A stretch of 64,000 nt of DNA from Campylobacterota bacterium (lineage in GTDB: Bacteria; Campylobacterota; Campylobacteria; Campylobacterales; Arcobacteraceae), in NCBI GenBank assembly GCA_051746405.1, contig JBNJFB010000005.1, positions 1,993 through 65,992 of the forward strand, written 5' to 3'. The notes under the pieces were generated by a model that saw nothing but the letters and a program-made list of their open reading frames with translations, had not been told where the DNA came from and did not search any database. This document shows, piece after piece, positions 36,572-60,723 of the stretch. Each line of letters begins with the position of its first letter. The stretch's first letter is position 1. The translations under genes were made by a program, and so were the position numbers.

Positions 36572-37540
36572 TTATCTTACCATCTGTGTTGCCATATCCA
36601 ATAAATTCTGTTTTATTTTATATTTTTGGCTATTTACATAATCTATTGTTACAAATTCAAACTTTGATTCTTTATAAACTATCACATAAGACTCTGTTTT
36701 ATTATCTATATTTAAAAGTTTGTCAATAGAATATGTTACAAATTCAACTGCCATAAGTCTATCATATACAGTGGGATTTCCACCTCTTTGTATATGACCT
36801 AATGTTGTAGCTCTTGTTTCAATTCCAACTTCATTTTCTAAGAAGTCAACTATATTTTCTGTTTGTTTTGTACCCTCTGCCACAAGGGCTACTATATATT
36901 GTCTACCATTTAATAACTCATTTTTTAGTTTAGTTTTCAGTGAATTTAAGTCATATTCAAGTTCTGGTATTATACAAATCTCTGCTCCACAAGTAATAGC
37001 TGAAACTAGTGCTAAATATCCACAATCTCTACCCATAGTCTCTATAACACAACCTCTTTTAAATGAAGCAGAGGTATCTCTAATAGCATCTGTTGCACCC
37101 CTAATTATATTTAAAGCTGTATCTACACCTAGACAATAGTCTGTAGCAAATATGTCATTATCAATTGTAGATGGTATTGCAATAAAAGGAATAGAAAAAT
37201 CTTTATGAAATTGATTTAAAGCTCGAAATGAACCATCACCTCCAAGAATAATAAGCCTACTTATTCCATATGATTTTAAATTTTCATAAGCTTGTTTTCT
37301 ATATTTATACTCATAAAATCGTTTGGATCTTGATGACCGAATCTTAGTCCCACCCTCATGCATTATTCCTGCTACATCTTCATATGTAGCTTTTTTAATA
37401 GTACCGTTTATTAATCCCTCTAATCCATCATAGATTAAGAATGGTTCTATTTTTAATGTAAAACAGTAATCAACAAACTGTTTTATAGCAGGGTTCATTC
37501 CAGCACAATCTCCACCTGAAGTAAGTATTGCTATTGCCAT
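36572..37540 (-). CDS. pfkA: ATP-dependent 6-phosphofructokinase
   Basis: TSGGD, GGDGS (ATP-type), TIDND, MGR, GHIQRGG. Confidence 0.95.
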   Translation of the reverse strand: MAIAILTSGGDCAGMNPAIKQFVDYCFTLKIEPFLIYDGLEGLINGTIKKATYEDVAGIMHEGGTKIRSSRSKRFYEYKYRKQAYENLKSYGISRLIILGGDGSFRALNQFHKDFSIPFIAIPSTIDNDIFATDYCLGVDTALNIIRGATDAIRDTSASFKRGCVIETMGRDCGYLALVSAITCGAEICIIPELEYDLNSLKTKLKNELLNGRQYIVALVAEGTKQTENIVDFLENEVGIETRATTLGHIQRGGNPTVYDRLMAVEFVTYSIDKLLNIDNKTESYVIVYKESKFEFVTIDYVNSQKYKIKQNLLDMATQMVR

Positions 37541-37541
37541 T

Positions 37542-38810
37542 TTAACTCTCTTTTTTCATCTTTTTTATAAGCTTTTTCTTCCCTAGTTCAACTCCTGGTT
37601 GATCATATGTATTTATGTCAAGCATTATACCTACAACTGAAGTTAATAGTTCGTAATAGTATATTAAACTTCCTAAGTTATCAATATTTAGATTATTTAT
37701 TGTAATCATATCACATGGGATTCCTGACTCACTTACACTCTCATATGTAGCCATACATTGGGCATTTATTAAGCTACTAAAACTATAATTATTACTGTAG
37801 TTTACCCCTGTAATATGGTCAAGTTTTATATCAGGTATTTTAATATCTGTTTGGAAATCATTTATTTTTAAAAAAGTTACTGTTTTATCCTCAGGACCTT
37901 GCATAACTAGCTGTAAAAAAGAGTGTTGGTCAACACTTCCTACTAATCCAATAGGAGTTAAACCCACTTTTTTAAATGTTTTATTAAGTTTTCCCAAACT
38001 CTCTCCCCATAACTGAACATACCACTTATTAAAGTTCTCAAAACTAGACCCATAAGAAAAAAGTATATTTATAGGTTTCTTTTTGGCTTTTTTAAAGTAA
38101 AAATATGCTTTTTCTAAAAGATGGTCATGTTTTCTATTAAAAAAATCTTTCTCAAACTTTGCTGCACCTAAAATAAGTTTTTCTATATCATATCCAATAA
38201 TAGAAAGTGGAACAAGTCCAACTGCACTTAATACAGAAAACCTTCCCCCAACGTTTTTAGGAATTGTAAAGGTTTTTATTTTATACTGTTGTGCAAATAA
38301 AAATAGTGGAGAGTTTTCATCTGTTATTGCAATAAGATTTTTTGTATCTTTTGTATGTAAATCTATTTTATATCTTTGAAGTACATACTTAAATATAGAA
38401 GTTGTTTCAATTGTTGTACCTGATTTGCTAATAACAATAAATATCGAATCTTCTTTATTAACATCTATTAAGTTTTCTTTTATATTGCTAGGGTCTCCAT
38501 TTTCAAGAAATATTAATTTTATTTCAGATTTCTTTTTAAATCCTAAAATAGCATCAATAGCTTTAGTACCTAAACTAGATCCACCTATTCCAATAACAAC
38601 AACATTTTTAATTTTATTATTTTGAAGAGAATTGTGATTCTTTTTATATTCTTCTATTTGATGAATTAGAGGTTTTGTATTATTTGGTAAAGAGTAGTAA
38701 CCAACTTTATTACTATCTTTCTCCTTTTTTAGTTTCTTAAAAGTACTTTCACAAAACTCAGTTGCTTTTTTACCAATTTTTGGGTTAAATTGTCTCTGGA
38801 ATTGAAGCAT
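37542..38810 (-). CDS. pgi: Glucose-6-phosphate isomerase
   Basis: GIGGSSLG, SKSGTT, GGRFSV, QLWGESLGK, HS, DQPGVELGK. Confidence 0.95.
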   Translation of the reverse strand: MLQFQRQFNPKIGKKATEFCESTFKKLKKEKDSNKVGYYSLPNNTKPLIHQIEEYKKNHNSLQNNKIKNVVVIGIGGSSLGTKAIDAILGFKKKSEIKLIFLENGDPSNIKENLIDVNKEDSIFIVISKSGTTIETTSIFKYVLQRYKIDLHTKDTKNLIAITDENSPLFLFAQQYKIKTFTIPKNVGGRFSVLSAVGLVPLSIIGYDIEKLILGAAKFEKDFFNRKHDHLLEKAYFYFKKAKKKPINILFSYGSSFENFNKWYVQLWGESLGKLNKTFKKVGLTPIGLVGSVDQHSFLQLVMQGPEDKTVTFLKINDFQTDIKIPDIKLDHITGVNYSNNYSFSSLINAQCMATYESVSESGIPCDMITINNLNIDNLGSLIYYYELLTSVVGIMLDINTYDQPGVELGKKKLIKKMKKES

Positions 38811-39805
38811 TATTTTGTTCCTACAAACTTTACCATATCAACTAATCTTGAGCTATATCCCCACTCATTATCATACCAAGCTAATACTTTTACAGTTTTA
38901 GCATCTACAACATTTGTCATATCAGGTACAAATGTAGAGCTATAAGTACTACCTACAAAATCACTAGATACTCTTTTGTCATTATCTATTTCAATTAAGC
39001 CTTTAAAATCTGCTTGACTTGCTTTTGTCATAGCATCATTTATTGCATCTACAGTAACCTCTTTATGTAAATTAACTGTTAAATCTACTACAGAAACATC
39101 AGCTGTAGGAACTCTCATAGCATAGCCATTTAATTTACCTGTTAAATTTGGCATAACTTTAGCAATAGCTTTTGCTGCACCTGTTGTAGTTGGTATCATA
39201 TTTACAGCAGCTGCTCTTGCTCTTCTTTTATCACTTTTATGTTTTACATCTAAGATATTTTGATCATTTGTGTAAGAATGAATAGTTGTCATAAGTCCAT
39301 TTTCAATCCCAAACTCTTCATCTAAAACTTTACAAATAGGTGCTAAACAGTTTGTAGTACAAGAAGCATTAGATATTATCTCTTCACCTTTATACTCATT
39401 AGTATTAATATTTAATACATAAGTGGGTGTGTCATCTTTAGCAGGTGCTGACATTACAACTTTTTCTACTCCATCTTTTAGATATGCCTTACATTTTTCA
39501 GTAGTTAAAAAAGCACCCGTACACTCAATAACAACTTTAGCTTTACATTTTCCAAAACCTAACTCTTTTGGATCTCTTGTGGAGAATATTTTTACATATT
39601 TTCCATTGATTTTCATAGTTGTATCATCAACAATTACAGCATCTACACCTTTATGAACTGAATCATATTTTAAAAGATATTGCAACATATCCATACTTGA
39701 TGTTGTATTAATTGCTACTAATTCTAAATCATCTCTACTTGTTACAATTTTTGCTACAATTACACCTATTCTTCCTGTTCCATTTATTGCTACTTTTAAT
39801 GCCAT
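38810..39805 (-). CDS. gapA: Type I glyceraldehyde-3-phosphate dehydrogenase
   Basis: GTGRIG, SNASCTTNCLAP, WYDNEWGYS. Confidence 0.96.
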   Translation of the reverse strand: MALKVAINGTGRIGVIVAKIVTSRDDLELVAINTTSSMDMLQYLLKYDSVHKGVDAVIVDDTTMKINGKYVKIFSTRDPKELGFGKCKAKVVIECTGAFLTTEKCKAYLKDGVEKVVMSAPAKDDTPTYVLNINTNEYKGEEIISNASCTTNCLAPICKVLDEEFGIENGLMTTIHSYTNDQNILDVKHKSDKRRARAAAVNMIPTTTGAAKAIAKVMPNLTGKLNGYAMRVPTADVSVVDLTVNLHKEVTVDAINDAMTKASQADFKGLIEIDNDKRVSSDFVGSTYSSTFVPDMTNVVDAKTVKVLAWYDNEWGYSSRLVDMVKFVGTK

Positions 39806-39829
39806 TTGTTATCCTTGATTTAATTGATT

Positions 39830-41473
39830 TTAAAACTTATACATTTTTTCATAATATTTATGTGCCATTGACCCTGAATCAAACTCATGTAAAACACTAT
39901 TCATGGAGTTTTCCATAATTCTAGCCCACTTTTTAGTATCTTCGTAATATATTGGTATTATCTCATTTTCTAGTCTATCCATCATCGATTTATTATCATT
40001 TTTATCTTGCATTTCTATACTTAAGCTTGCATCTGCATTTAAAATAGTAAAACTATTTTCACCATCATTACAAAATTCTGGATGCCAGCCATCTGCTATT
40101 GAGTAGTTAATAGCACCATTCATAGAAGCACTCATACCACTTGTTCCACTAGCTTCTCTAGTAATTCGTGGAGTATTAAGCCATATATCTGCACCCTGTT
40201 TTAGTAATCTTGACAATTGAAGTTCATACTCTATTAATACTGCTGTATTACTATACTGTTTTGTCAAATAGATAAGTTCATTAAATAGATTTATAGAGTT
40301 TGTATCAAAAGGATAAGGTTTACCAGCCCAAATAACTTGAATTGGTTGTTCCTTTCTAGTAATTAGATTTACAAATCTATCAAAGTCATATTTTAAAAGT
40401 CCTGGTCTTTTATACTCAGCAAATCTTCTTGCCCATACAATAGTAAGTACATCTGGGTCAAACATTTTACCTGTTTGATTTGCAACCTCATCAAAAAGTT
40501 TTCTTTTTAGATGTTTTTTTCTAGCAATTAATTCATAATCTTCATGTTCATCAAGGGCTCTAAGCATTGGTTTATCAGCCCAATATCTCTTATTTTGTGC
40601 ATTGGTAATATCAATAATATCACAAATACCATCATAACCTTTCCACATATCATTTGCCACATCTGCATGCATTCTAGATACGCCATTAGCAATTTTTGCT
40701 ACACGTAATGCAGAGACTGTAAGATTAAAATCATCATGCTTTTCATAATGAACTATTTGCTTAACCTCATCTAAAGAAATATTACTAAAAAAACCCATTT
40801 TATTTAAAAGATTTATATTATGTACTTCATTCCCAGCAGCTTCAGGGGTATGAGTAGTGAATCTAACCTTTTGCCTTAATAACTCCATATCTTTAATATT
40901 TTTATATAGTTCAAATACTAATGGTAAAGCATGTCCCTCATTCATATGATAAATATCAACTTTATGATTTAAAGCCTCAAGTACTTTAACTCCACCAATA
41001 CCTAAAACAATCTCCTGAGCAATTCTTGTCTCTTCATGTGCGTCATAAAGCTTATGTGTAATAGTTCTAGAAAGGTAATCATTCTCTTCTATATCTGTTG
41101 TAAGAAGTATTAAAGGAGCTGAACTAAATAGATGTGAAGGAACAATTTGTGCTTTTACAATGACAGGTTTATCATTTATCATAACAGTTACTTTTATATC
41201 TAAATCCTCTAAAAAGTAATAGTGTTTTCTTCTAAACTCAATTTTTAAGTTTCTATCTTCATCCCTTGCTTGGTCATAATAACCATAACTCCATAATAAA
41301 CCAATACCAACAACATTCTGTTTTAAGTCATAAGCACTTCTCATATGAGACCCAGCTAAAAACCCAAGACCACCTGAATATATTTTAAGTGCTTGGTGTA
41401 CTGCAAACTCCATTGAGAAGTAGGCTACTGCTTTACTATACTTTTTACTAAATTCATATTGTTCTATTTGCAT
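39830..41473 (-). CDS. glgP: Short (547 aa) alpha-glucan phosphorylase, GT35; PLP-lysine replaced by Ser
   Basis: YFSMEF, YSGGLGFLAG, NEGH, FTTHTP, RRFAEYKR, EASGTSGMSA. Confidence 0.88.
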   Translation of the reverse strand: MQIEQYEFSKKYSKAVAYFSMEFAVHQALKIYSGGLGFLAGSHMRSAYDLKQNVVGIGLLWSYGYYDQARDEDRNLKIEFRRKHYYFLEDLDIKVTVMINDKPVIVKAQIVPSHLFSSAPLILLTTDIEENDYLSRTITHKLYDAHEETRIAQEIVLGIGGVKVLEALNHKVDIYHMNEGHALPLVFELYKNIKDMELLRQKVRFTTHTPEAAGNEVHNINLLNKMGFFSNISLDEVKQIVHYEKHDDFNLTVSALRVAKIANGVSRMHADVANDMWKGYDGICDIIDITNAQNKRYWADKPMLRALDEHEDYELIARKKHLKRKLFDEVANQTGKMFDPDVLTIVWARRFAEYKRPGLLKYDFDRFVNLITRKEQPIQVIWAGKPYPFDTNSINLFNELIYLTKQYSNTAVLIEYELQLSRLLKQGADIWLNTPRITREASGTSGMSASMNGAINYSIADGWHPEFCNDGENSFTILNADASLSIEMQDKNDNKSMMDRLENEIIPIYYEDTKKWARIMENSMNSVLHEFDSGSMAHKYYEKMYKF

Positions 41474-41543
41474 ATGTCTCCTTTACTGTTTTAGAAAATA
41501 ATTATATATAAATCACATCACTATTTGGTTACAGACTATTATC

Positions 41544-42821
41544 TTACTTCCAATAATATTGAACAGCACCCTCTAGTTGTGCTTCTATTTCAAGAAGTCT
41601 ATTATATTTCTCTATTCTCTCACCTCTACTAGATGAACCTGTTTTTATATGTCCTGCATCAAATGCAACTGCAAAATCAGCTATAAACGTATCCCCTGTT
41701 TCTCCTGACCTATGTGATATAAATGTTCTAAATCCATTCTCTTTACACATCTTTATTGCATCTATTGATTCACTAACAGTTCCAATCTGATTTAACTTAA
41801 TTAAAACAGAGTTCGCACTTTTAAGTTCAATGCCTTTTTTTATATATTTTGTATTTGTTACAAAAAGATCATCTCCTACAACTTCAATATCATTACCTAG
41901 CTTTTGAGTAAATCTTGCAAAACCATCCCAGTCATTTTCTCCAAGTGGATCTTCCCAAGATATTATTGGATATTTTTTGCACCAACTTTGTGCCATTTCT
42001 ATCATTTCATCACTTGTTTTTATTCCACTATTTGACCACTTTAAATTATATTGATTATGGCTATTTTCAACTAAAAATTCACTAGCTGCACTATCTATTG
42101 CTATACTTATTTGCTCACCTGGTTTATACCCTGCATTTTTTATAGCTTCTACAATAAGCTCCATTGCTTCTTCGTTAGAATCAAGATTTGGAGCAAAACC
42201 ACCCTCATCACCTACACTAGTAGCTTTTTTTTGAGTTTTTAAAAGTTTTTTAAGCTCATGAAATGTTTCAGTAGCATACTGAAGACCTTCTTTAAATGAA
42301 GGTGCACCATGGGGTACAACCATAAACTCTTGAATATCTACACTATTATCTGCATGACTTCCCCCATTTAAAATATTCATACAAGGTACAGGTATTCTTC
42401 TAACATTACTTCCACCAAGATATCTATAAAGTGGCATATCACTATATATAGCTGCTGCTTTTGCCACTGCCATAGAAACCCCTAAAATTGCATTTGCTCC
42501 AAGATTTTCTTTTGTTGCAGTACCATCTAAATCTATCATAGTTTGATCTATCATAGTTTGATTCATACAACTCATCCCTTTTATCTTATTTGCAATAATA
42601 TTTTTTACATTATCAACAGCTTTTAATACCCCTTTACCACCATATCTATTTTTGTCATTATCTCTTAGTTCAACCGCTTCATTTACTCCTGTACTAGCAC
42701 CACTTGGTACAGAAGCTGATGCTATAATTCCACAAGCTAGTTTTACATAAACTCTAATAGTAGGATTTCCTCTACTATCTAAAATTTCTAACGCATTTAT
42801 ATCTTGTATAGTTCCACTCAT
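41544..42821 (-). CDS. eno: Enolase
   Basis: DSRGNPT, PSGASTG, DEGG, LIKLNQIG, SHRSGET. Confidence 0.96.
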   Translation of the reverse strand: MSGTIQDINALEILDSRGNPTIRVYVKLACGIIASASVPSGASTGVNEAVELRDNDKNRYGGKGVLKAVDNVKNIIANKIKGMSCMNQTMIDQTMIDLDGTATKENLGANAILGVSMAVAKAAAIYSDMPLYRYLGGSNVRRIPVPCMNILNGGSHADNSVDIQEFMVVPHGAPSFKEGLQYATETFHELKKLLKTQKKATSVGDEGGFAPNLDSNEEAMELIVEAIKNAGYKPGEQISIAIDSAASEFLVENSHNQYNLKWSNSGIKTSDEMIEMAQSWCKKYPIISWEDPLGENDWDGFARFTQKLGNDIEVVGDDLFVTNTKYIKKGIELKSANSVLIKLNQIGTVSESIDAIKMCKENGFRTFISHRSGETGDTFIADFAVAFDAGHIKTGSSSRGERIEKYNRLLEIEAQLEGAVQYYWK

Positions 42822-42843
42822 TAATCTACCCTCTTATTTTATT

Positions 42844-43911
42844 TTATAATCTATTTAAACAATTTAAATCTTCAAATGTTTTCATTGCTCTTTTTACCAT
42901 ACTATCTTGTCCCGCTCTCAACCACTTCCTTGGGTCATAATACTTCTTATTTGGACTACTTTCTCCTGATGGATTTCCAATTTGAGACTGTAAGTATTGA
43001 TGATTTATTTTTTCATACTCTCTTATGCCATCCCAAAATGCCCATTGCATATCTGTATCAATATTCATTTTAACTACCCCAAAACTAATAGCATCTTTTA
43101 TATCTGATACTGAACTTCCACTACCACCATGAAAGACAAAATTCACAGGTTTTGTTTCAGTTTTTAAAGTATCTTTTATATATTTTTGTGAATTGTCTAA
43201 TATTTGAGGTTTTAAAGTCACATTACCTGGTTTATATACTCCATGTACATTTCCAAAGCTAGCTGCAATAGTAAAATTTGGAGATATTTTTGATAACTTA
43301 TCATAGGCATAACAAACTTCACTTGGTTGTGTATAAAGTGAAGTTACATCAGCATCACTATTATCAACTCCATCCTCTTCTCCACCTGTAATACCAAGTT
43401 CAATCTCTAAGGTCATACCAATTTTTGACATTTGTTTTAAATACTTCGATGAGATTTCAATATTTTCTTCTAAAGTCTCCTGACTTAAATCTAACATATG
43501 AGATGAGAAAAGGGGTTTTCCTGTTTTAGAAAAATGCTCTTCACTAGCTTCTAATAACTTATCTATCCATGGTAAAAGCTTTTTTGAAGCATGGTCTGTA
43601 TGGAGTATTACAGGAATACCATAATTTTTTGATACTTCATGAACATGTTTAGCACCTGCAATTGCACCAATTACATCTGCATTTTCATTATTAATATTTC
43701 CTGCATTAAACTTAGCTCCACCATTACTAAACTGTATAATAACAGGTGAGTTGACTTTTGAGGCTACTTCTAAAGCTGCATTTATTGATTCACTACCAAT
43801 TACATTTATTGCAGGTATTGCAAAGTTGTTATTTTTTGCATAATCAAATACCCTTTTCACATCACTGCCTGTTATAACTCCAGTATCTACAATATTTAAT
43901 AAACCCATCAT
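42844..43911 (-). CDS. fbaA: Class II fructose-bisphosphate aldolase
   Basis: HTDH, FGNVHGVYKPG, FHGGSG, NIDTD. Confidence 0.96.
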   Translation of the reverse strand: MMGLLNIVDTGVITGSDVKRVFDYAKNNNFAIPAINVIGSESINAALEVASKVNSPVIIQFSNGGAKFNAGNINNENADVIGAIAGAKHVHEVSKNYGIPVILHTDHASKKLLPWIDKLLEASEEHFSKTGKPLFSSHMLDLSQETLEENIEISSKYLKQMSKIGMTLEIELGITGGEEDGVDNSDADVTSLYTQPSEVCYAYDKLSKISPNFTIAASFGNVHGVYKPGNVTLKPQILDNSQKYIKDTLKTETKPVNFVFHGGSGSSVSDIKDAISFGVVKMNIDTDMQWAFWDGIREYEKINHQYLQSQIGNPSGESSPNKKYYDPRKWLRAGQDSMVKRAMKTFEDLNCLNRL

Positions 43912-47407: not shown

Positions 47408-47408
47408 C

Positions 47409-48879: not shown

Positions 48880-50082
48880 TTAATCAAGATTTTCAAAACC
48901 AGGAAGAAGTTTTCCCTCTAATAACTCTAAACTAGCTCCACCACCTGTACTTATGAAACTAATATTCTCTTTCTCTCCTGCTTTGTCTGCAGCATTTGCA
49001 GTATCTCCACCCCCAACAATACTATATGCATAAGTATCTGCAATAGCATGTGCTATTCTAAATGTCCCTTTTGAATATCTACCTATTTCAAAAATACCCA
49101 TAGGTCCATTCCATATAATAGTATTAGACAATCCTATAGCTTCTTCAAAAAGTTTTACAGTAGCAGGTCCGATATCAACAGCCATAAAACCATCTAGCAT
49201 ATCTTGTGATGGCACTACTTTATTATCTACTGGATGGTCTATACTATCTGTTATTACCACATCTACAGGTAAATATAGATTTACTTTAGATGCCCGTGCT
49301 GTTTGTATTATTTCAGTAGCTTCTTGTAAATAATCATTTTCTACAAGTGAAGATTTTGTATCATACCCTATTGCTTTAAGAAATGTATTAGACATAGCTC
49401 CACCAATTATAAGCTTATCTATTTTTGGCATAATATTTTTTAATAGTGTTATTTTTGAAGATACCTTTGCTCCACCTATTACTAAACATATAGGTTCTAC
49501 TGGCTTAAATAATGCTTTTGCAAATGCATCTATTTCACGTTTTAGTAAAAACCCTGCAACCTTAGTTTCCACATACTTTGTTATACCAACAGTAGAACTA
49601 TGGGCTCTATGGCTAGTCCCAAATGCATCATTTACAAAAATATCACAAAGTGATGCCAACTCTTTTGATAACGTTTCATCATTTTTTGTTTCACCAGAAA
49701 AGAATCTAATATTTTCTAATATAAAAACTTTTGAATCATTTGCACTATTTAAAACATCTTTATTTTCTATAAAATTATCTATAAGTTCTACTTTTTTATC
49801 AAGTAATCGCTCTAATCTTTTAACTATATGTTTTAAAGAAAATTTATCTTCATATCCATTTTTCGGCTTTCCTAAATGAGTTACTAAAACTATATTTTTG
49901 GCTTGATGGTCTATACAATAAGTTATTGTTCGAAGTGCTTCTTTAATACGATTATCGTCTGTTATGTTATGATGAGAATCCATAGGTACATTAAAATCTA
50001 CCCGAATAAGTACTCTTTTATTTTTTACATCCACATCTTTTAACGACTTAACATTTTGCATTATTTCTATATTTGATAACAT
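48880..50082 (-). CDS. pgk: Phosphoglycerate kinase
   Basis: RVDFNVP, LENIRF, DAFGTSHRAH, GGAKV, WNGPMG, STGGGASLE; start trimmed to MLSNI after AAGG. Confidence 0.95.
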   Translation of the reverse strand: MLSNIEIMQNVKSLKDVDVKNKRVLIRVDFNVPMDSHHNITDDNRIKEALRTITYCIDHQAKNIVLVTHLGKPKNGYEDKFSLKHIVKRLERLLDKKVELIDNFIENKDVLNSANDSKVFILENIRFFSGETKNDETLSKELASLCDIFVNDAFGTSHRAHSSTVGITKYVETKVAGFLLKREIDAFAKALFKPVEPICLVIGGAKVSSKITLLKNIMPKIDKLIIGGAMSNTFLKAIGYDTKSSLVENDYLQEATEIIQTARASKVNLYLPVDVVITDSIDHPVDNKVVPSQDMLDGFMAVDIGPATVKLFEEAIGLSNTIIWNGPMGIFEIGRYSKGTFRIAHAIADTYAYSIVGGGDTANAADKAGEKENISFISTGGGASLELLEGKLLPGFENLD

Positions 50083-50158
50083 TTTGTACCTTTTTAATAA
50101 TTTATTAATATTATCAAAAATTAAGTACAAAATGATTACAAAATTTTATCAAAAGTAT

Positions 50159-51001
50159 TTAATTTAAAAAGCTATCTTCTACTGCTTGTATCTCTTTTTT
50201 AGAACCAAAATAAAAAGGTGTTTTTTGCTGTATTGATACATTTGTCATATCAAGGATTCGTCCCTTATGACTTATAGCTCGTCCCCCTGCTTCTTCAATA
50301 ATATATGAAATTGGAAAAGCTTCAAATATAATATCATGAACTCCATCAGGAAAAGATTTTGTAGCTGGACTTGAATATACTCCCCCTTTTTTAAACAAAA
50401 TTTGGTGCGTATCCAAAGCCAAAGAGTCAGAAAACCTAAGCCTATAACCCTCATTAAAAAATGAATCTATAAGCTCTTTATGCTCACTTGTCCACTCATT
50501 TGGTAATCCACCAGTTGAGTTTATTTTTCCAGAATTTTCTAGTTTTAGAGGGTCTTGTTCTATAAACTCTCCATTTTCATAGGAAAAGTAAATCACCCCT
50601 TCTTGCTTTGAAGCAAATACTAGTTGGAAAGTTGGACCATAGGTTATATACATTGCAGCTTTTAAGTGAAAAGCATCCATATGATTTTCATAAATTCCAA
50701 AAATAGTACCTAAAGAGAAATCAACATCTATTAAATCTAGATTATCAATTGCAACATAACTAATCTTATACTTGCCATTTTCATTTATTGTTGTATATTT
50801 TTTAGAATATTTACCAATAAAACCATGCACTGATTTAACTTTTTTGAACTCTGTTCTTATTACCTTTGAACAATACTCATTTACTCTATCATGCATCTGC
50901 TCATCGCTTAATCCACTTGAGATAAATTTATCACAATCTGTAAAGACATTTTTTTCAATATCTTCTGCAATATTTGTTATGGCGTTGAAAACTGCTATCA
51001 T
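50159..51001 (-). CDS. Class I FBPase homologue with degenerate active site
   Basis: Overall FBPase_1 layout (GTIFGIY, YGP, GYRLR, GGVYSSP, FEAFP...EEAGG) but VAIDNLD in place of DPLDGSS and GKY in place of SEE. Confidence 0.8.
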   Translation of the reverse strand: MIAVFNAITNIAEDIEKNVFTDCDKFISSGLSDEQMHDRVNEYCSKVIRTEFKKVKSVHGFIGKYSKKYTTINENGKYKISYVAIDNLDLIDVDFSLGTIFGIYENHMDAFHLKAAMYITYGPTFQLVFASKQEGVIYFSYENGEFIEQDPLKLENSGKINSTGGLPNEWTSEHKELIDSFFNEGYRLRFSDSLALDTHQILFKKGGVYSSPATKSFPDGVHDIIFEAFPISYIIEEAGGRAISHKGRILDMTNVSIQQKTPFYFGSKKEIQAVEDSFLN

Positions 51002-51081
51002 TTATATAAACCCTAACTTATTATAATTTGTCAATTGACATTGTTTCTTACAATAATACCAAGTAATTCATTAAAGATTGA

Positions 51082-51897
51082 TTACTTAGCTTCTTTTTTT
51101 GTTCCCTCTAAACTCCCATTTTCCAACTTTGAGAGTTTTATTTTAATACTGTTTTTACAAAAAGCACTTTTAATAATTTCTTGTTCCAAAAACATCTTCA
51201 ACTGTTTGTTTTTACCAACACTTCCACCTAAAACTAAATCAGAAAAATCAAATAAACTTATGGCAGTATGAAAGGCATGTGCCAAACCATCATAAAAATT
51301 ATCTATAATTATTTTACTTTCAGGTGTATTTAGTTTATGCAATTTATCAAGCCTATGATAGTATGAAGTTATTTTATAATACTCACACCATCTTTTTATA
51401 GCACTACCACTTACACTTAGTTCAATACAATCATCTCTACCACATCCACATACAAATGGTGTTTTTTTAAAAGGGATATGTCCTATCTCCCCACTTTGAT
51501 TATTTACCCCTCGTACAAGTTTCCCATCGTCAAGAAAAGCACCTCCAAAGCCTGTTCCAATATAAAAAAGTGCCATTGATTTTGAGCCAGTACTTTTATG
51601 TTCTGCTATTGCTGCACAGTTTAAATCATTATCTATTTTTAGTGCAATTTTGTAAGTATCATTTATATATTTTTTAATATTAAAATTTTCTATAGCTATA
51701 CTTGGAGATTTAACTATAACCCCATCTTTTACTTGACCCGCGAAGCTTATAGATATAAACTCTATTTGTTTATTTTTATTTATAATATCATCTAAAAAAG
51801 TTTTTAAGTCAACTGTTTTACTTCCAAGTGATATAATTTGACCATTATCAAACTGATATCTAAAATTTGTACCACCAAAATCTATATAAAGATTCAT
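51082..51897 (-). CDS. ROK-family sugar kinase (putative glucokinase)
   Basis: IDFGGTN, NDLNCAAIAE, GTGFGG, GEIGH, CGCGRDDCIE. Confidence 0.88.
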   Translation of the reverse strand: MNLYIDFGGTNFRYQFDNGQIISLGSKTVDLKTFLDDIINKNKQIEFISISFAGQVKDGVIVKSPSIAIENFNIKKYINDTYKIALKIDNDLNCAAIAEHKSTGSKSMALFYIGTGFGGAFLDDGKLVRGVNNQSGEIGHIPFKKTPFVCGCGRDDCIELSVSGSAIKRWCEYYKITSYYHRLDKLHKLNTPESKIIIDNFYDGLAHAFHTAISLFDFSDLVLGGSVGKNKQLKMFLEQEIIKSAFCKNSIKIKLSKLENGSLEGTKKEAK

Positions 51898-51904
51898 ACT
51901 AAAC

Positions 51905-52885
51905 TTAACTCTCTTTTAATATTTTTGCAGCAGTTTCAGGCAAAAAAGTATTTATCATAATATCACTATCAAGCTCAAATCCAGCAGTTTTGTACAATCT
52001 TGGTATAATTTGAATATGAAATCTATTAGAGTTATGAGTATCTTGTATAGCTCCATTTTTTATAAGCATATTAAAATCACACTCACCCAAAGCTTTTTTG
52101 AGCTTTATAAAACAGTATTGTATAATTTCACTTAAGGAGTAAATCCCTATATCATCTAAATCTAAAATAGAAGATATTTCACCAGTTGCAACTATATTTA
52201 TCTCAAATGAATAACTTGAAGCATAAGGACAAAATGCTATAAAGTAGTTATTCTCAAAAAGTAACCCTTTCATAAAGGTTTTCTCTTCATAAATTAAATC
52301 ATCAAAAAAACATCTATTTGTTTCTTGCTTATATTTACTATACTCTTCAAGGTCAGATGCAATCGTTTTAGGAATAAATGGCGTTGCTATAAGTTGTGAA
52401 TGGGAATGCAAGATAGATGCCCCACCATCTTGTCCATAATTTTTAAATATTGAAAAATAATTCAATCTTATATCTTTTTTAAGGTCATTAATACGAAGTT
52501 TTATGATACTAAAATAATCAAAAAACTCATCAATTGAAAAATCAAACATTTGATGACTATGGACAGGAGTTTCTATGATAACTTCATGTGCTCCAAAAGC
52601 ACTCATATTTTCAAAACATCCTGTTCTATATGATTTTACCTCTTTATCAATACTTAATGCATGATATAAATTTGGAACCACTCTGCATTTCCAGTTTTGC
52701 AAAGTACCAATTCTAGCTAGCTCATTAGGTGTTTGCTCTTCATTTCCTTTCTCAAAAGGACAACTTTCTATATCTTTTTTTGTATGATTATCATCATTTC
52801 TATTAAAACTAAAAGGTCTTCTTGCTCTATTTGGAGCAAATAAAACCCAATTTTTTGTTAGCTTATTATATCTAAATTCTGACAT
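51905..52885 (-). CDS. GalT-like hexose-1-phosphate nucleotidyltransferase
   Basis: RARRP, CPF, VVPNLY, GAHEVIIETP, KNYG..GGASILHSHSQ (HxHxQ). Confidence 0.85.
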   Translation of the reverse strand: MSEFRYNKLTKNWVLFAPNRARRPFSFNRNDDNHTKKDIESCPFEKGNEEQTPNELARIGTLQNWKCRVVPNLYHALSIDKEVKSYRTGCFENMSAFGAHEVIIETPVHSHQMFDFSIDEFFDYFSIIKLRINDLKKDIRLNYFSIFKNYGQDGGASILHSHSQLIATPFIPKTIASDLEEYSKYKQETNRCFFDDLIYEEKTFMKGLLFENNYFIAFCPYASSYSFEINIVATGEISSILDLDDIGIYSLSEIIQYCFIKLKKALGECDFNMLIKNGAIQDTHNSNRFHIQIIPRLYKTAGFELDSDIMINTFLPETAAKILKES

Positions 52886-54972
52886 TATATGTACCAATTC
52901 TTTAAATCTAAATTTTCTATATCTATTATAAAACTATTATATAATGGGAAAGATTGAACTTTATTCGCCCCTTCAAATATAGAAAACTTAAAATCTATTT
53001 TTTTTCCTACTGTTAACTGTTTTGATGAAAACTCTATTTGTATACTATTTTCCAATGAAAAAACATTACAAGAGATATCTTCTTGAATAATATTTTGCTT
53101 ACCTTTTGTAACAAATATTTCAAACTCCTTATCATTTAAAGTAACTATTAATGATATTTTTTTAAAAAGCTTTGCAAAATTTCCATCAAAAAAGAGATAA
53201 AATTTCCCTACATTATAACCATATTTAATATTTTTTACTATATTTTTAGAGCTATCCATAACTGAAAACTCTTTTTTTATATCAATAAAACCACTATTTA
53301 TCCACTCAAAATAATTACTTTTATCACAAGCTAGGTTTTGATAAATAAAACTTAAAGGTTTTGTATGAAAACCATTATTTGAAGTGTCATCAACAATTGG
53401 TCTTAATATTTCTAAAGGTGTTGGAAGCTTTAGATACTCATAAATATTTATAAGGTGCGTTCTAAAAAATGTATCAAACTCTTTGGACTGAACAGTAAAA
53501 TGGTCATCTCCATACCACCAAAACCAATCACTTGCCAATGCCACCATAAATTCATTTTCAATAAGCTGTAGAGTTTTTTTATCTAAAGAGTTTTTATATT
53601 TATCAAAATCCCTTTTTGTAATACTTAAAAGCTCCCAAGCTCTATTTTTTTGTTTACTTCCTATCCAAATATCAAAGTTTCCATTTATCCAACTTCCACT
53701 ATGTATATGTGATAATGTTTCGCATACTATTTGTTTATCATGAGTTACTTCATCCATTGTTACTGTTTCTATCCAAGAAGTACTTTCAAATAAGCTATAT
53801 AGTTCATTAAAAAACTCAAATGCATTATTTGGAAAAAACTCCCAAGCATTTTCTCCATCAAGTATAACATTAACTAATGGCATAAAATCACATGAGTTAT
53901 ATATCTCTTGCAAATGCTCTACAAATCTTTTTGCAGCTACTTTTGGTTCTATATTACTATACTCAAAACCTATTAAGTCACTTAAGTAATGGTCTCTAAA
54001 TCTCACATCAATAACACCATTTTGTGTTTGTAACTGATAATTTTTATAGATATCTTTTTTCTCTCTTTTGTTAGGTGATTTAAAAAGAGTCTCTTCATCA
54101 CTACAAAACCATTGCAAACCATTTTTTGTAAATAATTCAGCAGTATCCTGACTTACACTACCCTCTGCAGGCCAAAAACCCTTTGTTTTCTTTCCAAATC
54201 TATTTTCAAAAAATTGTATTGCATCTTCTGTATTTTTTATACCAAACTCCTTAAAAGAAGCTAACTTTTCTGGCATAACCACATCATGTTTTGCTTTTTT
54301 TGCATTTGAAAAGTCAAGTAATAATGGTGTGATTGGATGAAAATAAGGAGTGGTACAAACTGTTATTTTATTCTCACTATCTAACTTTTTATACAACTGT
54401 ATTATAGATGGTAAAAATGCAACTAGTTCATTTATAAGTTTTATTTTCTCTTCTTGTGAAAAATTATCTCCTTTTGCTAAAAGGAACTTAACCTCTTCAT
54501 TGGAAGTTCTTAAATATACACCACACCATGATAAAAGAAATAATACCTGTGTATCTAAAAGCTCACTAGAACTAAAATCTTGTATAGTTTTATGTGTATT
54601 GTATTTTAAATAAAGCTCATAATATCTTTTAAGAGGTTTTATCATATTTTTTTCATTTGATAAAAAAAGATAACTTTGAAGATACTCTTTATCATGAGTA
54701 GTAAGGTTTACTATATCTTTTTTTAAAGTCTCAAGTAGTTTATCATTTGCACTATTATCTATATATGACTCTATTTGACGCACTAATGAGGGAACTAGGT
54801 TAAAAGTAGTTTTAAGATTAGGAAATAAACTACCATACCAAGGTATATCATAATAGTCTTTTATTGAGTGTAAAAATACCCAAGGAAACAGTGTTTTATC
54901 TGACTTATCATCTTTATAATATGGCTGATGCATATGCCATAAAAATGCTAGTTTTAATTTTTTTTCACTCAT
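52885..54972 (-). CDS. GH57 amylopullulanase-like glycoside hydrolase
   Basis: WHMHQP, GFWPAEG nucleophile, ILDGENAWE acid/base, ASDWFWW. Confidence 0.88.
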   Translation of the reverse strand: MSEKKLKLAFLWHMHQPYYKDDKSDKTLFPWVFLHSIKDYYDIPWYGSLFPNLKTTFNLVPSLVRQIESYIDNSANDKLLETLKKDIVNLTTHDKEYLQSYLFLSNEKNMIKPLKRYYELYLKYNTHKTIQDFSSSELLDTQVLFLLSWCGVYLRTSNEEVKFLLAKGDNFSQEEKIKLINELVAFLPSIIQLYKKLDSENKITVCTTPYFHPITPLLLDFSNAKKAKHDVVMPEKLASFKEFGIKNTEDAIQFFENRFGKKTKGFWPAEGSVSQDTAELFTKNGLQWFCSDEETLFKSPNKREKKDIYKNYQLQTQNGVIDVRFRDHYLSDLIGFEYSNIEPKVAAKRFVEHLQEIYNSCDFMPLVNVILDGENAWEFFPNNAFEFFNELYSLFESTSWIETVTMDEVTHDKQIVCETLSHIHSGSWINGNFDIWIGSKQKNRAWELLSITKRDFDKYKNSLDKKTLQLIENEFMVALASDWFWWYGDDHFTVQSKEFDTFFRTHLINIYEYLKLPTPLEILRPIVDDTSNNGFHTKPLSFIYQNLACDKSNYFEWINSGFIDIKKEFSVMDSSKNIVKNIKYGYNVGKFYLFFDGNFAKLFKKISLIVTLNDKEFEIFVTKGKQNIIQEDISCNVFSLENSIQIEFSSKQLTVGKKIDFKFSIFEGANKVQSFPLYNSFIIDIENLDLKNWYI

Positions 54973-54978
54973 GATTTA

Positions 54979-56970
54979 TTATATATCTTTTATTGTAAAT
55001 TGCATTATTGTATTGAAACTTTTAACAAAATCAAATACAAAACCAAAACTTATCCCTTGATTTGTAATATCAAGCCCTTTTTCACTTTGACTAATAGTGT
55101 TTAGTGGTACTATTAATATATCAATATCTTTTTGAAAACTAAAACTTATTATCTTTTTTGTATATCTATCTTTAATTATAAGTTCACTTGTATGTAGCTT
55201 TAAAGTTGATTGATTATCTTCTAAGATAAGATTATTAAAACTCACTTCTTGTATATTAGCAAAATGTAGATTCCACTCATGAAAATAGTAAAGTTTTTTA
55301 GTAAAACTACTCTTTAAGCCTATGTCTATTTCTATACTATTTTTTAAAAATTTATAAGATTTTTCAATCTTTGTATCAAACTTCTTATCTAAATAGATAC
55401 CACCATCTCTTTTTAAAGAGATTTTTTTTGATCTATTTTTACTCTCTTCATAAGGCTGATTTGCAAAATCTCCTAACTCATGAAAACTATTATTAAAAAA
55501 GCTTTCACAGGATATTGCATTTACAATATGATCAATAGCTGATTTTTTTAAATACCAATCTATAATAATCTTCATATCTTCTTTTAGTAGAAGTTTATTA
55601 TCGTGAATAGTTATTAACTCTTCTTTTTCTTCTAAACTACTATCACCTATTACTATTTCCTTATGATAGGCTTCTTCATGTCTTGTGAGTGTATTTTGTA
55701 GATTATATTTTTCATCTAATAAATCAAGTTCAACTATTTGTCCTCCATGTTTAGATGATATAATAGTAAGAAGGTTTTCACTTTTAAATTTATATTCATC
55801 ATACCCATCCATATCAATATCAATAGTCTCTTTTGATGTTTTAAGCATGGTTTCACAATCTATTATATACTTATATGTATTATCTCTTAAATTTGGAAGA
55901 TATATACCTCCAAATACACCATGCCATAATACATCATTACATTGTGATTTATAAAGTGCTTCTTTATATTTTGTACTTGTACCTTGTTTGTTAGAAAGTT
56001 CTAAAAATCTTTTTTGAATCCAGTTACTCTCTTGATATTTATTAAAAAAATTCTTCCATGTGCCCCCATTAATAAAATGAGATAGCTCTCTTTGAGAATT
56101 CATTAATGAGTCAACTTTAATTGCTTCAGCACACTTTAATGACCACTTCCCCATTTCTGAATATGATACTGTTGGTAAATATACCAAACCTAAAGGTTTA
56201 TTTTCCATATAGTAGTCTTTAAACGTTTTACACTCTATTTTCTCATCTGCTAAAGTTTGAGTAATAAAATCTTCTAACCATTTTTTTTCATATACTGTCT
56301 CATATGTTTTTGGCCATATTCCAAACTTTTCCCCATCATCAAAAAGAATAGCTGCATTTTTTCCTTGTGTATTCTCAAAACTATGAAGAAGATTATTTGT
56401 AGTTTCTAAATCATAAAAAGGAATAGCATATCGTAACTCTTGATTTATAGGAAATATCCCTATAGAGTCACCGCCCTCTTCTGTAATGAAATATCCTGTT
56501 GTATCTTTAACATCAACTCCTGTAGAAATAAGATGATAATCATCTACTATTACATACTCAACGTTACACTGCTTTATATCTCTTATAATACTATTGTCCC
56601 AAACCCTTTCAGTAAGCCATAGACCTTTTGGAGTTTGGTTAAAGTGTTTTTTTATATAGTTTGATAGCTTTTTTATTTGAGCTATTCTATCTACAGCTGG
56701 AATAGAGGCTAAAATTGGCTCATAAAACCCTCCTGTAAAAAACTCTATTTGTTTTGATAGTGATTTTATAAGTGAAAAAAGCTCCTTATCATTTTTTTGT
56801 ATAAACTCTAAAAGCCATCCACTAAAATGAACAGAAAATTTAAAATCAGGAAACTTTTGAACTGTTTGAAAAAAAGGCTTATAAGATTTCTCAATCGCAT
56901 CATATATTACATAATCAAAATTATCAATTGGTTGATGAGAGTGAACCCCTAAAAGAAATGTTGTTTTCAT
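54979..56970 (-). CDS. GH57 4-alpha-glucanotransferase / alpha-amylase
   Basis: HSHQP, GLWLTERVW, FDDGEKFG, SQCNDVLWHG. Confidence 0.88.
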   Translation of the reverse strand: MKTTFLLGVHSHQPIDNFDYVIYDAIEKSYKPFFQTVQKFPDFKFSVHFSGWLLEFIQKNDKELFSLIKSLSKQIEFFTGGFYEPILASIPAVDRIAQIKKLSNYIKKHFNQTPKGLWLTERVWDNSIIRDIKQCNVEYVIVDDYHLISTGVDVKDTTGYFITEEGGDSIGIFPINQELRYAIPFYDLETTNNLLHSFENTQGKNAAILFDDGEKFGIWPKTYETVYEKKWLEDFITQTLADEKIECKTFKDYYMENKPLGLVYLPTVSYSEMGKWSLKCAEAIKVDSLMNSQRELSHFINGGTWKNFFNKYQESNWIQKRFLELSNKQGTSTKYKEALYKSQCNDVLWHGVFGGIYLPNLRDNTYKYIIDCETMLKTSKETIDIDMDGYDEYKFKSENLLTIISSKHGGQIVELDLLDEKYNLQNTLTRHEEAYHKEIVIGDSSLEEKEELITIHDNKLLLKEDMKIIIDWYLKKSAIDHIVNAISCESFFNNSFHELGDFANQPYEESKNRSKKISLKRDGGIYLDKKFDTKIEKSYKFLKNSIEIDIGLKSSFTKKLYYFHEWNLHFANIQEVSFNNLILEDNQSTLKLHTSELIIKDRYTKKIISFSFQKDIDILIVPLNTISQSEKGLDITNQGISFGFVFDFVKSFNTIMQFTIKDI

Positions 56971-57031
56971 ATTTTAACCCCTTATTTGGTTGTACTAATG
57001 TTATTCTTATTTAATCACAGTTTAATTACAA

Positions 57032-58456
57032 TTACTGATATAGCTCTATATATCTTAAAGCAGAGTGTTCCCAGGAGTTATCAACTGCCATATTATGCTT
57101 TGAAATAGTTTCAAACTTTTGATGATTTGCATAGAGACTTAAAGCTTTTGCAATAGCATGCATAAACCAAAAGATATTTTGCTCTTCATATGTGATACCT
57201 ATACCTATATACTCATTAAGACTTGAATAATCCACATCTGTAAAATCAACCACACTATCTTTAAGTCCTCCAGTTTTTGCAACTATTGGTAAAACACCAT
57301 ATTTCATACCTATCATTTGATTCAATCCACAAGGTTCAAAAATAGATGGCATAAGTAAAAAATCCGCAGCTGCATATAGTTTTCTTGAAAAACTCTCTTC
57401 ATATCCAACTTTTATATAAACATTAGGATAACTAACGGAAATATTATTGAAAATTGTTTCGTAATGCTTTTCTCCACTTCCAAGTATGATAAAGTTTGCT
57501 TCAAAATCTTTTAAAAGATTTAAACTCTCTATAAGTAAATCAATACCTTTTTGATTTGTAAACCTACCTATAAAAATAAAAAGTGGCTTTTGACTGCGTT
57601 TAAAACCTATATCTGCTAAAAGTTGTTGTTTATTTTCATTTTTATTTTTATAGTTTTTTAGTGTAAACTTTTTATATATATTTAAATCAATTTTAGGATT
57701 AAACACCTCATAGCTTATTCCATTTAAGATTCCAGAAAGTTTATAATTGTTTGCAATAAGTGTGTGCTCTAAGTCATTACCAAAAAGCTTTGTTTGAATC
57801 TCATTTGCATATGTGGGACTAACAGTTGTGATTTTATCACTATAAAAAATACCAGCTTTAAGAAAATTTACTTCATCGTGATACTCTAAAGCTTCTTTCT
57901 TAAAACACTTATCCCAAGAAAGTTCAAGTAAATCAACACTATTTTTTGGATAAATTCCTTGATAAGCAAGATTATGAATAGTAAGAATTATCTTTTGTGA
58001 TAACTTATATTTTGTTTTTGCCAATAGTGCAATCAGTGCTGTTTGCCAATCGTTTATATGAATAGCAGATATTTCTAAATTCATATGAAAAATTACTTCT
58101 ATACATGCATAAGAAAAGAGTCCAAACCTTAAAGCATTGTCACCAAAATCACCATATCCATCATAATACAGCCCTTCTCTATCACATAAAATTGGATTAT
58201 ATATAAAAAGTTCATATCTATTATTTTTATTATGAAATATATCAAACTGATGGGATACACCATTTAAAGTATAATAAAATGTACAATGAGCGTACTGTAA
58301 ATTAAACTTATTTCTATCTATTGTTTGATAAAGTGGCAACACAGTATAAACATCTATGGTATTTCTTAATGCTTCAGGTAAACTTTGTGAAACATCACCA
58401 AGCCCACCACTTTTAGCATAAGGATACATCTCGCTTGTACAAAATAGTAGTGCCAT
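57032..58456 (-). CDS. glgA: Glycogen synthase (GT5)
   Basis: PYAKSGGLGDV, HINDWQT, TIHNLAYQG, RFTNQKG, PSIFEPCGL, TGGLKD; start trimmed to MALLF. Confidence 0.93.
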   Translation of the reverse strand: MALLFCTSEMYPYAKSGGLGDVSQSLPEALRNTIDVYTVLPLYQTIDRNKFNLQYAHCTFYYTLNGVSHQFDIFHNKNNRYELFIYNPILCDREGLYYDGYGDFGDNALRFGLFSYACIEVIFHMNLEISAIHINDWQTALIALLAKTKYKLSQKIILTIHNLAYQGIYPKNSVDLLELSWDKCFKKEALEYHDEVNFLKAGIFYSDKITTVSPTYANEIQTKLFGNDLEHTLIANNYKLSGILNGISYEVFNPKIDLNIYKKFTLKNYKNKNENKQQLLADIGFKRSQKPLFIFIGRFTNQKGIDLLIESLNLLKDFEANFIILGSGEKHYETIFNNISVSYPNVYIKVGYEESFSRKLYAAADFLLMPSIFEPCGLNQMIGMKYGVLPIVAKTGGLKDSVVDFTDVDYSSLNEYIGIGITYEEQNIFWFMHAIAKALSLYANHQKFETISKHNMAVDNSWEHSALRYIELYQ

Positions 58457-58457
58457 T

Positions 58458-60050: not shown

Positions 60051-60577
60051 AGTTTTTCTCCTAAATCTTTAGAGCTTAAATACTCACAAGATATATTACT
60101 ATACTCTTGTATTCTTTTAGTTTTTTTTAGATAAGTTGCATAAATAATATCTTTATTAATAATTTTTATATTATCTGATTCCATAAGATTTTTAATTATC
60201 ATACCGTCTTTATAAACAGCTATAACTTTTATCTCTTTTAAAGATGAATTTGTAGTATCTATATTATAAAAATACTCACCATATAAATATTCACACTTTA
60301 TATTAGCAAGTAAATTCTGTTTTTGATCAACTATATGAAAAAAAATATCATCTAAACTTATACTATTTTTATCTAAAAACTCCTCTGTAAACTCCCAATA
60401 AAAATATGATCTACTTTTATTTACAGGTAGCATTACCAATTTATTTTTATAATATCTTGTTGGAATAATATAATCTTTTTCTTCAACTACATTATCTGCT
60501 ACAATCGTATCAATAGAGTGTATACTACTAGTAAAGTTTCCTGTAGTTAAACTTTCATTTATTAAATTCTCTTTCAT
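60047..60577 (-). CDS. DUF4912-like protein
   Basis: LVMLPV...YFYWE motif; directly upstream of the GH57 branching enzyme; start at ATG 60577 for RBS spacing. Confidence 0.65.
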   Translation of the reverse strand: MKENLINESLTTGNFTSSIHSIDTIVADNVVEEKDYIIPTRYYKNKLVMLPVNKSRSYFYWEFTEEFLDKNSISLDDIFFHIVDQKQNLLANIKCEYLYGEYFYNIDTTNSSLKEIKVIAVYKDGMIIKNLMESDNIKIINKDIIYATYLKKTKRIQEYSNISCEYLSSKDLGEKL

Positions 60578-60723
60578 ATTTAGCAATCTCCTTATATCAT
60601 AAATTATATCGCTAAATAGTTACAAATCAGTTATATAGAAAAAAATTTAAGGTTAAGGCTAATATGTAACTAAAATGTATCTAAAGGTAAGTAAAATAGA
60701 GTAACTTTTAATTAGGATAGATA

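Follow-up and report, generated by a model that had tools for sequence, protein, structure and literature searches.

To our knowledge, dependence on pyridoxal 5'-phosphate (PLP) was long treated as universal for the phosphorylases of family GT35. This view was overturned by work on an archaeal enzyme in 2025 and by a phylogeny in 2026, and assay has so far covered that one archaeal enzyme. It is the glycogen phosphorylase (GP) of Methanococcus maripaludis (MmGP, UniProt Q6LXX5; bioRxiv 10.1101/2024.09.29.615707; FEBS J 2025, doi 10.1111/febs.70182), in which the PLP-binding lysine is replaced by threonine. MmGP is active on glycogen, with a Km for orthophosphate of 0.74 mM, and was found to be PLP-free by ultraviolet (UV) and fluorescence measurements, a cyanohydrin assay and mass spectrometry; in the authors' proposal the PLP 5'-phosphate is replaced by a second orthophosphate, and in their model the pyridoxal pocket is filled (10.1101/2024.09.29.615707). 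Adenosine diphosphate (ADP), ADP-glucose and uridine diphosphate glucose (UDP-glucose) affect the enzyme strongly, as inhibitors (10.1101/2024.09.29.615707). Here, a bacterial gene for such a protein is described from a 64 000-nucleotide stretch of DNA (the window; contig JBNJFB010000005.1 of assembly GCA_051746405.1, positions 1993 to 65 992 of the forward strand) of a Campylobacterota bacterium of the family Arcobacteraceae. Judged from its sequence, the encoded protein has intact glucan and orthophosphate sites, and its cofactor-anchoring lysine is replaced by Ser448.

In the 2026 phylogeny, one of the two sub-clades of GP1 clade VIII (∼550 residues) is without the lysine and carries Thr, Gly or Ala instead (Nat Commun 2026;17:5756, PMC13324651). 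Flavobacteria, Chitinophagia, Cytophagia, Akkermansia and Gastranaerophilales were assigned to this sub-clade, 'Archaea' were also placed there, and MmGP was cited as evidence that the lysine is dispensable (PMC13324651). Neither Campylobacterota nor serine is named in the main text of that paper, lysine-less GT35 enzymes are unmentioned in the 2024 Chem Rev review (PMC11046441), and a literature search for glycogen phosphorylase in Sulfurimonas returned nothing relevant. The novelty implied by the original prediction, which had been made from the DNA sequence of the window, has to be given up, as both the subfamily and the phenomenon had already been published (FEBS J 2025; Nat Commun 2026); the window protein is a further, Campylobacterota example of the published kind and not a new kind. 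What the window adds is a phylum and a residue (Campylobacterota and Ser) that the MmGP and Nat Commun 2026 papers do not name, in an unusually clear gene context, with the lysine-less GP as the only phosphorylase of the window, linking a glycogen cluster to a glycolysis operon. The lysine-less form is moreover the usual one in Akkermansia and in many Bacteroidota available in culture (Chryseobacterium, Pedobacter, Hymenobacter and others), and a bacterial test case should therefore be easy to obtain.

Residues were compared between 21 lysine-less and 120 lysine-bearing (K-type) representatives and in an alignment of 70 sequences (A1), and were numbered against the GP of Segatella copri (ScGP). 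The features of the gene are as follows.

39830..41473, minus strand: open reading frame (ORF) of 547 residues, short alpha-glucan (glycogen) phosphorylase gene of the GP1/TIGR02094 type, lysine-less sub-clade.
41363..41374, minus strand: GGLG, residues 34–37, glycine loop binding glucose-1-phosphate/phosphate; invariant in A1 and present in both groups.
40850..40852, minus strand: His208 in FTTHTP, aligned with ScGP His316; invariant in A1.
40406..40429, minus strand: RRFAEYKR, residues 349–356, phosphate/substrate-binding segment; conserved in both groups.
40211..40213, minus strand: codon TCA, Ser421, one helical turn before Lys425; Ala/Gly in the K-type group.
40199..40201, minus strand: codon AAA, Lys425 in helix 418–427, equivalent to ScGP Val586; clade-specific lysine.
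40133..40156, minus strand: EASGTSGM, residues 440–447; invariant in A1 and kept in the K-type and lysine-less groups.
40130..40132, minus strand: codon AGT, Ser448, at the column of the PLP Schiff-base lysine (ScGP Lys609; by motif, rabbit Lys680).

The ORF begins with ATG, and a ribosome-binding site, AAGGAG, lies 6 nt before it. In profile searches the protein scored 433.7 bits with TIGR02094, 'alpha-glucan family phosphorylase' (cut-off 191.7), and 45.8 bits with TIGR02093, the model of the classical GP2 enzymes (cut-off 552.9); PF00343 matched residues 294–492 with 52.2 bits (cut-off 27). An AlphaFold2 model (pLDDT 92.5, pTM 0.91) places residues 418–427 in a helix, 430–433 in a strand and 444–450 in a second helix. 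When this model was submitted to Foldseek, the top matches were the entries 20YR and 9L6I (TMq 0.91), followed by the E. coli, human and rabbit GPs, and the two-Rossmann GT-B phosphorylase fold is present. By sequence and fold the protein is thus a member of GT35, but it is not a canonical PLP enzyme. The length of 547 residues given in the original prediction was confirmed; it is normal for the lysine-less sub-clade, in which relatives have 537–571 residues, and there are no extra domains.

Residues 438–453 read TREASGTSGM-S-ASMNG. A phmmer search of the PDB aligned the query segment 'easgtsgmsasmng' with 'easgtsgekaemng' of ScGP (9L6I) without a gap, and Ser448 is therefore equivalent to ScGP Lys609. 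This lysine bears the PLP in ScGP, as seen by cryo-electron microscopy (PMC12912991). The serine codon reported originally in place of the PLP lysine was thus borne out both by direct reading and by the alignment to 9L6I. The same column holds serine (96) or threonine (24) in all 120 of the closest database homologues, which come from independent assemblies at 67–100% identity and belong to Sulfurimonas, Arcobacter, Halarcobacter and other Campylobacterota, and it holds lysine in 120 of 120 K-type representatives. This is the subfamily alignment that had been suggested as a check. A sequencing or assembly error, or an inactivating mutation of this strain, has a negligible probability as the origin of Ser448; the origin of the window in a single genome speaks for it, and nothing more. 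AGT differs from AAA and AAG at two bases, so that a single base error is ruled out, and the 120 independent homologues are joined by 119 further Ser/Thr cases in the genome scan described below. On these three grounds the explanation was rejected. Relatives of the gene also occur in two lake-metagenome runs, in contigs that do not span 40130–40132.

The substitution belongs to a clade. When 1.84 billion cluster representatives were searched, the column held Ser, Thr, Gly or Ala in the ∼20 nearest clusters (33–53% identity, 512–571 residues), and EASGTSGMK was present in every other listed representative whose motif could be read. A FastTree phylogeny of 153 sequences placed all 33 non-Lys sequences in one clade with no Lys sequence inside it (SH-like support 1.0); with IQ-TREE (LG+G4, 56 sequences) the lysine-less split received SH-aLRT 100 and UFBoot 100, and its grouping with a short K-type sister group received 99.5/100. 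One genome from each GTDB species was scanned with a degenerate DNA pattern encoding EA[S]GT[S]GM[S/T]A, which gave at least 120 loci; all those listed were true members, with Thr in 92, Ser in 27 and Cys in 1. Among the matches listed, ORFs uncut by the locus end had mostly about 545–600 residues, and the taxa were Bacteroidota (Chitinophagaceae, Chryseobacterium, Flavobacteriaceae, Cytophagales, Pedobacter and Hymenobacter) as well as Akkermansia, Luteolibacter, Gastranaerophilales/Vampirovibrio, Sulfuricurvum, Sulfurimonas and Sulfurovum. In a tree that included the scan sequences, the Campylobacterota formed a branch of their own, sister to Bacteroidota plus Verrucomicrobia. The homologue columns, the trees and the genome scan together establish what had been raised as a possibility, namely that the change is common to a whole short GT35 subfamily rather than being a strain mutation.

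No archaeal member was found among the traced clade representatives, as judged from cluster names and from the contig contexts of P0122, P0125, P0151, P0175 and P0129, which were all bacterial. One gene from an 'archaeal' bin (Candidatus Methanomethylophilaceae, L119) is nested among Gastranaerophilales sequences, and the placement of 'Archaea' inside the lysine-less clade therefore needs care. A gammaproteobacterial isolate, Halopseudomonas formosensis JCM 18415 (L116), carries a Bacteroidota-like lysine-less GP. Both placements could be owing to horizontal transfer, contamination or mis-binning. A fragment from an archaeal metagenome-assembled genome (L027, DATDXH010000010.1, 351–379) reads PLEASGTSGM-C-AALNGVP, with cysteine at the lysine column, a motif context typical of the K-type short GP1 enzymes and Ser, not Lys, at the column of Lys425; from these residues, the anchor lysine seems to have been lost here independently, outside the lysine-less clade, or the sequence to be in error. 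On a deep branch of the clade (P0129, P0139 and P0210, for example L127:1606–3234) the loop is degraded to EACGTSWM, GACETSWM or EACEDCWI and the equivalent of Lys425 is kept, and one of these genes adjoins a GDE_C debranching gene. To judge from the motifs, the proteins of this branch may be inactive or mechanistically different again.

The remainder of the active site is present. Kept in both the lysine-less and the K-type groups are Glu22, GGLG 34–37, His176, Asn178, Glu179, His181, FTTHTP 205–210, Asn291, Trp298, Arg349, Arg350, Tyr354, Lys355, Arg356, Tyr416 and EASGTSG 440–446. In classical enzymes, the EASGTSGM loop and the start of the following helix bind glucose and the PLP 5'-phosphate. 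The segment RRFAEYKR is intact at residues 349–356, as had been reported, and the phmmer alignment equates its Arg349, Arg350 and Lys355 with ScGP R507, R508 and K513. These three residues, together with H316, contact substrate or product in ScGP (PMC12912991). All of the substrate and orthophosphate residues tested (His208, Arg349, Arg350, Lys355, Gly34–Gly37 and Glu440–Gly446) are present and clade-invariant, and among the inventoried catalytic residues aligned to ScGP only Lys609 differs, being replaced by Ser448. The catalytic residues of the clade are unchanged down to ∼36% identity, which points to purifying selection on an active site.

Two further positions are among the most striking differences between the groups. 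Position 425 is lysine in 21 of 21 lysine-less representatives and at 118 of 119 genome loci, and in none of the 120 K-type representatives, which have V, T, I or L there. Position 421 is serine in 17 of the 21 lysine-less representatives, versus A (86), G (23) and S (9) in the K-type group, and is invariant in A1. The resulting triad (Ala/Gly421 to Ser, Val/Thr/Ile425 to Lys and Lys448 to Ser/Thr) is spread over two successive helices in the C-terminal Rossmann domain, and in the most divergent members of the clade Lys425 is better conserved than the EASGTSG loop. The window protein carries both Ser421 and Lys425; this co-signature is not a published clade criterion and is proposed here, and neither residue is mentioned in the MmGP preprint or in the main text of the Nat Commun 2026 paper. 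Further coupled changes, specific to the clade, from the K-type to the lysine-less group are Gly24 to Ala, Asp42 to Ser, Lys45 to Arg, Tyr61 to Trp, Phe66 to Tyr, Phe218 to His/Tyr, His294 to Asp/Asn, Gly346 to Val, Phe347 to Trp, Ala386 to Pro, Gly393 to Met/Ala/Ser, Trp464 to Met/His and Gly474-Trp475 to Ser-Phe. A pocket-filling phenylalanine (Phe26 in MmGP) was also considered as a clade marker and was discarded, since the corresponding position 23 is Phe, Tyr or Ile in both groups and does not discriminate between them. From motif spacing and rabbit numbering, we take Tyr416, Ser421, Lys425 and Ser448 to correspond to rabbit Tyr648, Ala653, Ile657 and Lys680, respectively. In the alignment with ScGP, Lys425 corresponds to Val586 and the neighbouring Arg422 to Arg583. 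The latter is the arginine of a 'distal' adenosine monophosphate (AMP) site behind the active site of ScGP (PMC12912991).

By analogy with MmGP, the window protein is probably an active, PLP-independent GP of the lysine-less GP1 sub-clade that feeds the adjacent glycolysis genes, with a second anion in the former 5'-phosphate site; most likely, on the same analogy, it carries no PLP. A second free orthophosphate or another anion would occupy the place of the PLP 5'-phosphate and act as the proton shuttle, as proposed for MmGP, and the pocket of the pyridoxal ring and its lysine may be refilled by Ala24, Val346, Trp347, Ser421 and, in particular, Lys425. Going by the gene context, GP would break down stored glycogen to glucose-1-phosphate, which would be converted to glucose-6-phosphate by the phosphoglucomutase domain of a fusion protein encoded nearby in the window, and the glucose-6-phosphate would enter the presumably co-transcribed pgi-pfkA-fba-gap-eno genes. 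Several points weigh against this proposal. Trp298 and Tyr416 are kept in the clade and correspond by motif to rabbit Trp491 and Tyr648. These two rabbit residues pack on the PLP ring. Their retention, together with the new Lys425, may point to a differently anchored cofactor. The only lysine-less GP known to have been assayed is the archaeal MmGP, and this precedent may carry over only if MmGP belongs to the same clade and is not an independent loss. The status of sole phosphorylase applies to the 64-kb window, and a second, Lys-bearing phosphorylase may be encoded elsewhere in the genome.

On one branch of the tree, the change of Lys448 to Ser/Thr may have been coupled to those of Val/Thr425 to Lys and Ala/Gly421 to Ser as a 'lysine relocation', with a role in the pocket or as an effector site; as read from the substitution pattern, this is an unlikely possibility. 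With the help of Ser421 and Ser448, the ∊-amino group of Lys425 would then fill the former pyridoxal/Lys pocket and might there hold the second, catalytic orthophosphate, amounting to a cofactor substitute built by the protein itself; in another version, a new effector site for an anion or a nucleotide, matching the distal AMP site of ScGP, could be made up of Lys425 and Arg/Lys422. The Lys425/Ser421 signature in any case provides a concrete mutagenesis target for the question of the cofactor-free mechanism. Rather doubtful is the proposal that the enzyme still uses PLP or another B6 vitamer as its cofactor, held noncovalently or as a Schiff base to a relocated Lys425. It accounts for a lysine found throughout the lysine-less clade and in none of the 120 K-type representatives, and for the retention of the surroundings that PLP has in classical enzymes (Trp298, Tyr416, Thr444 and the EASGTSG loop), but MmGP is PLP-free by four methods and its model pocket is filled (an argument that transfers only if the two share a clade), and the small-to-large changes Gly24Ala, Gly346Val and Phe347Trp fit a filled pocket. 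On geometrical grounds, Lys425, ∼8 residues down its helix, is also probably too deep to reach C4' of a PLP in the normal position.

That the protein is a noncatalytic glucan binder or pseudoenzyme, which lost phosphorylase activity with the cofactor, is very unlikely. The canonical cofactor anchor is indeed gone, and a few deep clade members have further degraded motifs such as EACGTSWM and EACEDCWI, but the substrate and phosphate residues are all invariant in the window protein and its Campylobacterota and Bacteroidota relatives, the protein is the sole phosphorylase of a cluster otherwise without a route from glycogen to glucose-1-phosphate, and MmGP is active. A change of chemistry to a nucleoside diphosphate (NDP)-glucose-dependent transferase or a hydrolase, with a nucleotide in the former PLP site, is highly improbable. 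The nucleotide site of GT-B relatives is regarded as the counterpart of the PLP site of GT35 (PMC11046441), Lys425 and Arg422 lie on the helix that bears Arg583 of the distal AMP site in ScGP, and ADP, ADP-glucose and UDP-glucose strongly affect MmGP; against this, the nucleotides inhibit MmGP, the activity measured for it is phosphorolysis, the cluster has a dedicated GlgA, and the orthophosphate-binding Arg350 and Lys355 are kept. Of the three mechanisms in the original prediction, the PLP-independent one is thus favoured by the MmGP precedent, the glucan binder is disfavoured by the conserved residues and by the glycolysis/glycogen operon, and alternative PLP binding is kept alive by Lys425.

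The window protein resembles MmGP in being of the short GP1 type (MmGP, ∼60 kDa), in the exchange of the lysine of EASGTxxMK for a hydroxyl residue (Thr in MmGP, Ser in some Methanococcales) and in the conservation of substrate and phosphate residues; a further parallel is that MmGP acts on the cell's own glycogen, its host not growing on sugars. The window protein differs in being bacterial and in having Ser, whereas MmGP is archaeal and has been assayed as active, PLP-free, monomeric and subject to many effectors. This comparison was made from the published description of MmGP, and the two lysine losses may be one event or two. With the lysine-less sub-clade of clade VIII the protein shares the length of ∼550 residues, the replacement of Lys by a small residue and the GGLG loop, and in the trees it lies inside the monophyletic lysine-less group with sequences from Flavobacteria, Chitinophagia, Cytophagia, Akkermansia and Gastranaerophilales. 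The nearest solved structure, ScGP (PDB entry 9L6I; PNAS 2026, PMC12912991), shares the GP1 catalytic core (TMq 0.91, 28% identity). Unlike the window protein, ScGP has 852 residues, N-terminal helical and C-terminal beta-sheet domains, a pentameric assembly, regulation by AMP and PLP on Lys609, and it has Val586 and an alanine where the window protein has Lys425 and Ser421. The classical GlgP, MalP and muscle phosphorylases (GP2, TIGR02093, ∼800 residues) share the GT-B fold and equivalents of the motifs GGLG, NHT-type His, TN...W, (K/R)RxxEYKR and EASGTxxM; unlike them, the window protein is ∼250 residues shorter and has no tower or regulatory N-terminus and no PLP lysine.

The gene lies within a co-directional run of glycolysis genes, and a second cluster, for glycogen metabolism and gluconeogenesis, follows ∼5 kb beyond this run, past plus-strand hox genes.

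36572..43911, minus strand: co-directional run fba-eno-GP-gap-pgi-pfkA, with gaps of 0–70 bp.
36572–37540, minus strand: pfkA, by a family profile match.
37542–38810, minus strand: pgi, named from its translation and tblastn matches.
38810–39805, minus strand: gap, named from its translation and tblastn matches.
41544–42821, minus strand: eno, named from its translation and tblastn matches.
42844–43911, minus strand: fba, named from its translation and tblastn matches.
44073–48839, plus strand: NADH-dehydrogenase-like/Hox-type hydrogenase genes, divergent from fba.
48880..63219, minus-strand genes and one plus-strand fusion: glycogen/gluconeogenesis cluster, from NCBIfam and Pfam scans.
60724–63219, plus strand: nucleotidyltransferase–phosphoglucomutase fusion of 831 residues, divergent from the glycogen cluster.

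A consensus scan revealed no convincing minus-strand terminator inside the fba–pfkA run, and promoter and terminator matches in the run were no more frequent than expected by chance. The minus-strand genes of the glycogen cluster are pgk, fbp, a ROK kinase, a GalT-like gene, a GH57 gene, a GH57 gene of the 4-alpha-glucanotransferase type, glgA, a GH57 branching enzyme and a DUF4912 gene. Apart from the GP, no phosphorylase is encoded in the window, and no other route from glycogen to glucose-1-phosphate is evident there. In other Campylobacterota (L067, L072, L102 and L115) the orthologue of the GP stands beside pgi, pfkA, glgA, GH57, fusion, GalT-like or ROK kinase genes; on a contig from a marine member of the Bacteroidota it comes after a gene for a GT5 glycogen synthase (glgA) and an isoamylase-like gene, and on a contig from candidate phyla a lysine-less GP neighbours a GDE_C debranching gene. 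The association of this GP with glycogen turnover is therefore general.

The fusion protein consists of a GlgC/RmlA-like sugar-1-phosphate nucleotidyltransferase with an LbH domain and a phosphoglucomutase/phosphomannomutase, and its gene is kept beside the lysine-less GP in other Campylobacterota (L067 and L115); it may channel glucose-6-phosphate through glucose-1-phosphate to NDP-glucose in one polypeptide. The GalT-like/DUF4921 gene of the HIT family (51905–52897, minus strand) lies in the glycogen cluster beside the ROK kinase gene, and in Sulfurovum (L115) this pair is found directly upstream of the GP gene. It could encode an enzyme of the ADP-glucose/NDP-glucose phosphorylase type and not a galactose enzyme. 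The glucan-remodelling genes of the cluster (52885–60586, minus strand) are all GH57: the branching enzyme, the 4-alpha-glucanotransferase type and a third GH57 of 695 residues, accompanied by a small DUF4912-like ORF; no GH13 or GH77 gene was found within the 64-kb window. Among the hydrogenase genes, HoxE/F-like ORFs were recognized from their translations at 44073–46159 (plus strand), and glycogen fermentation and hydrogen metabolism may be co-regulated.

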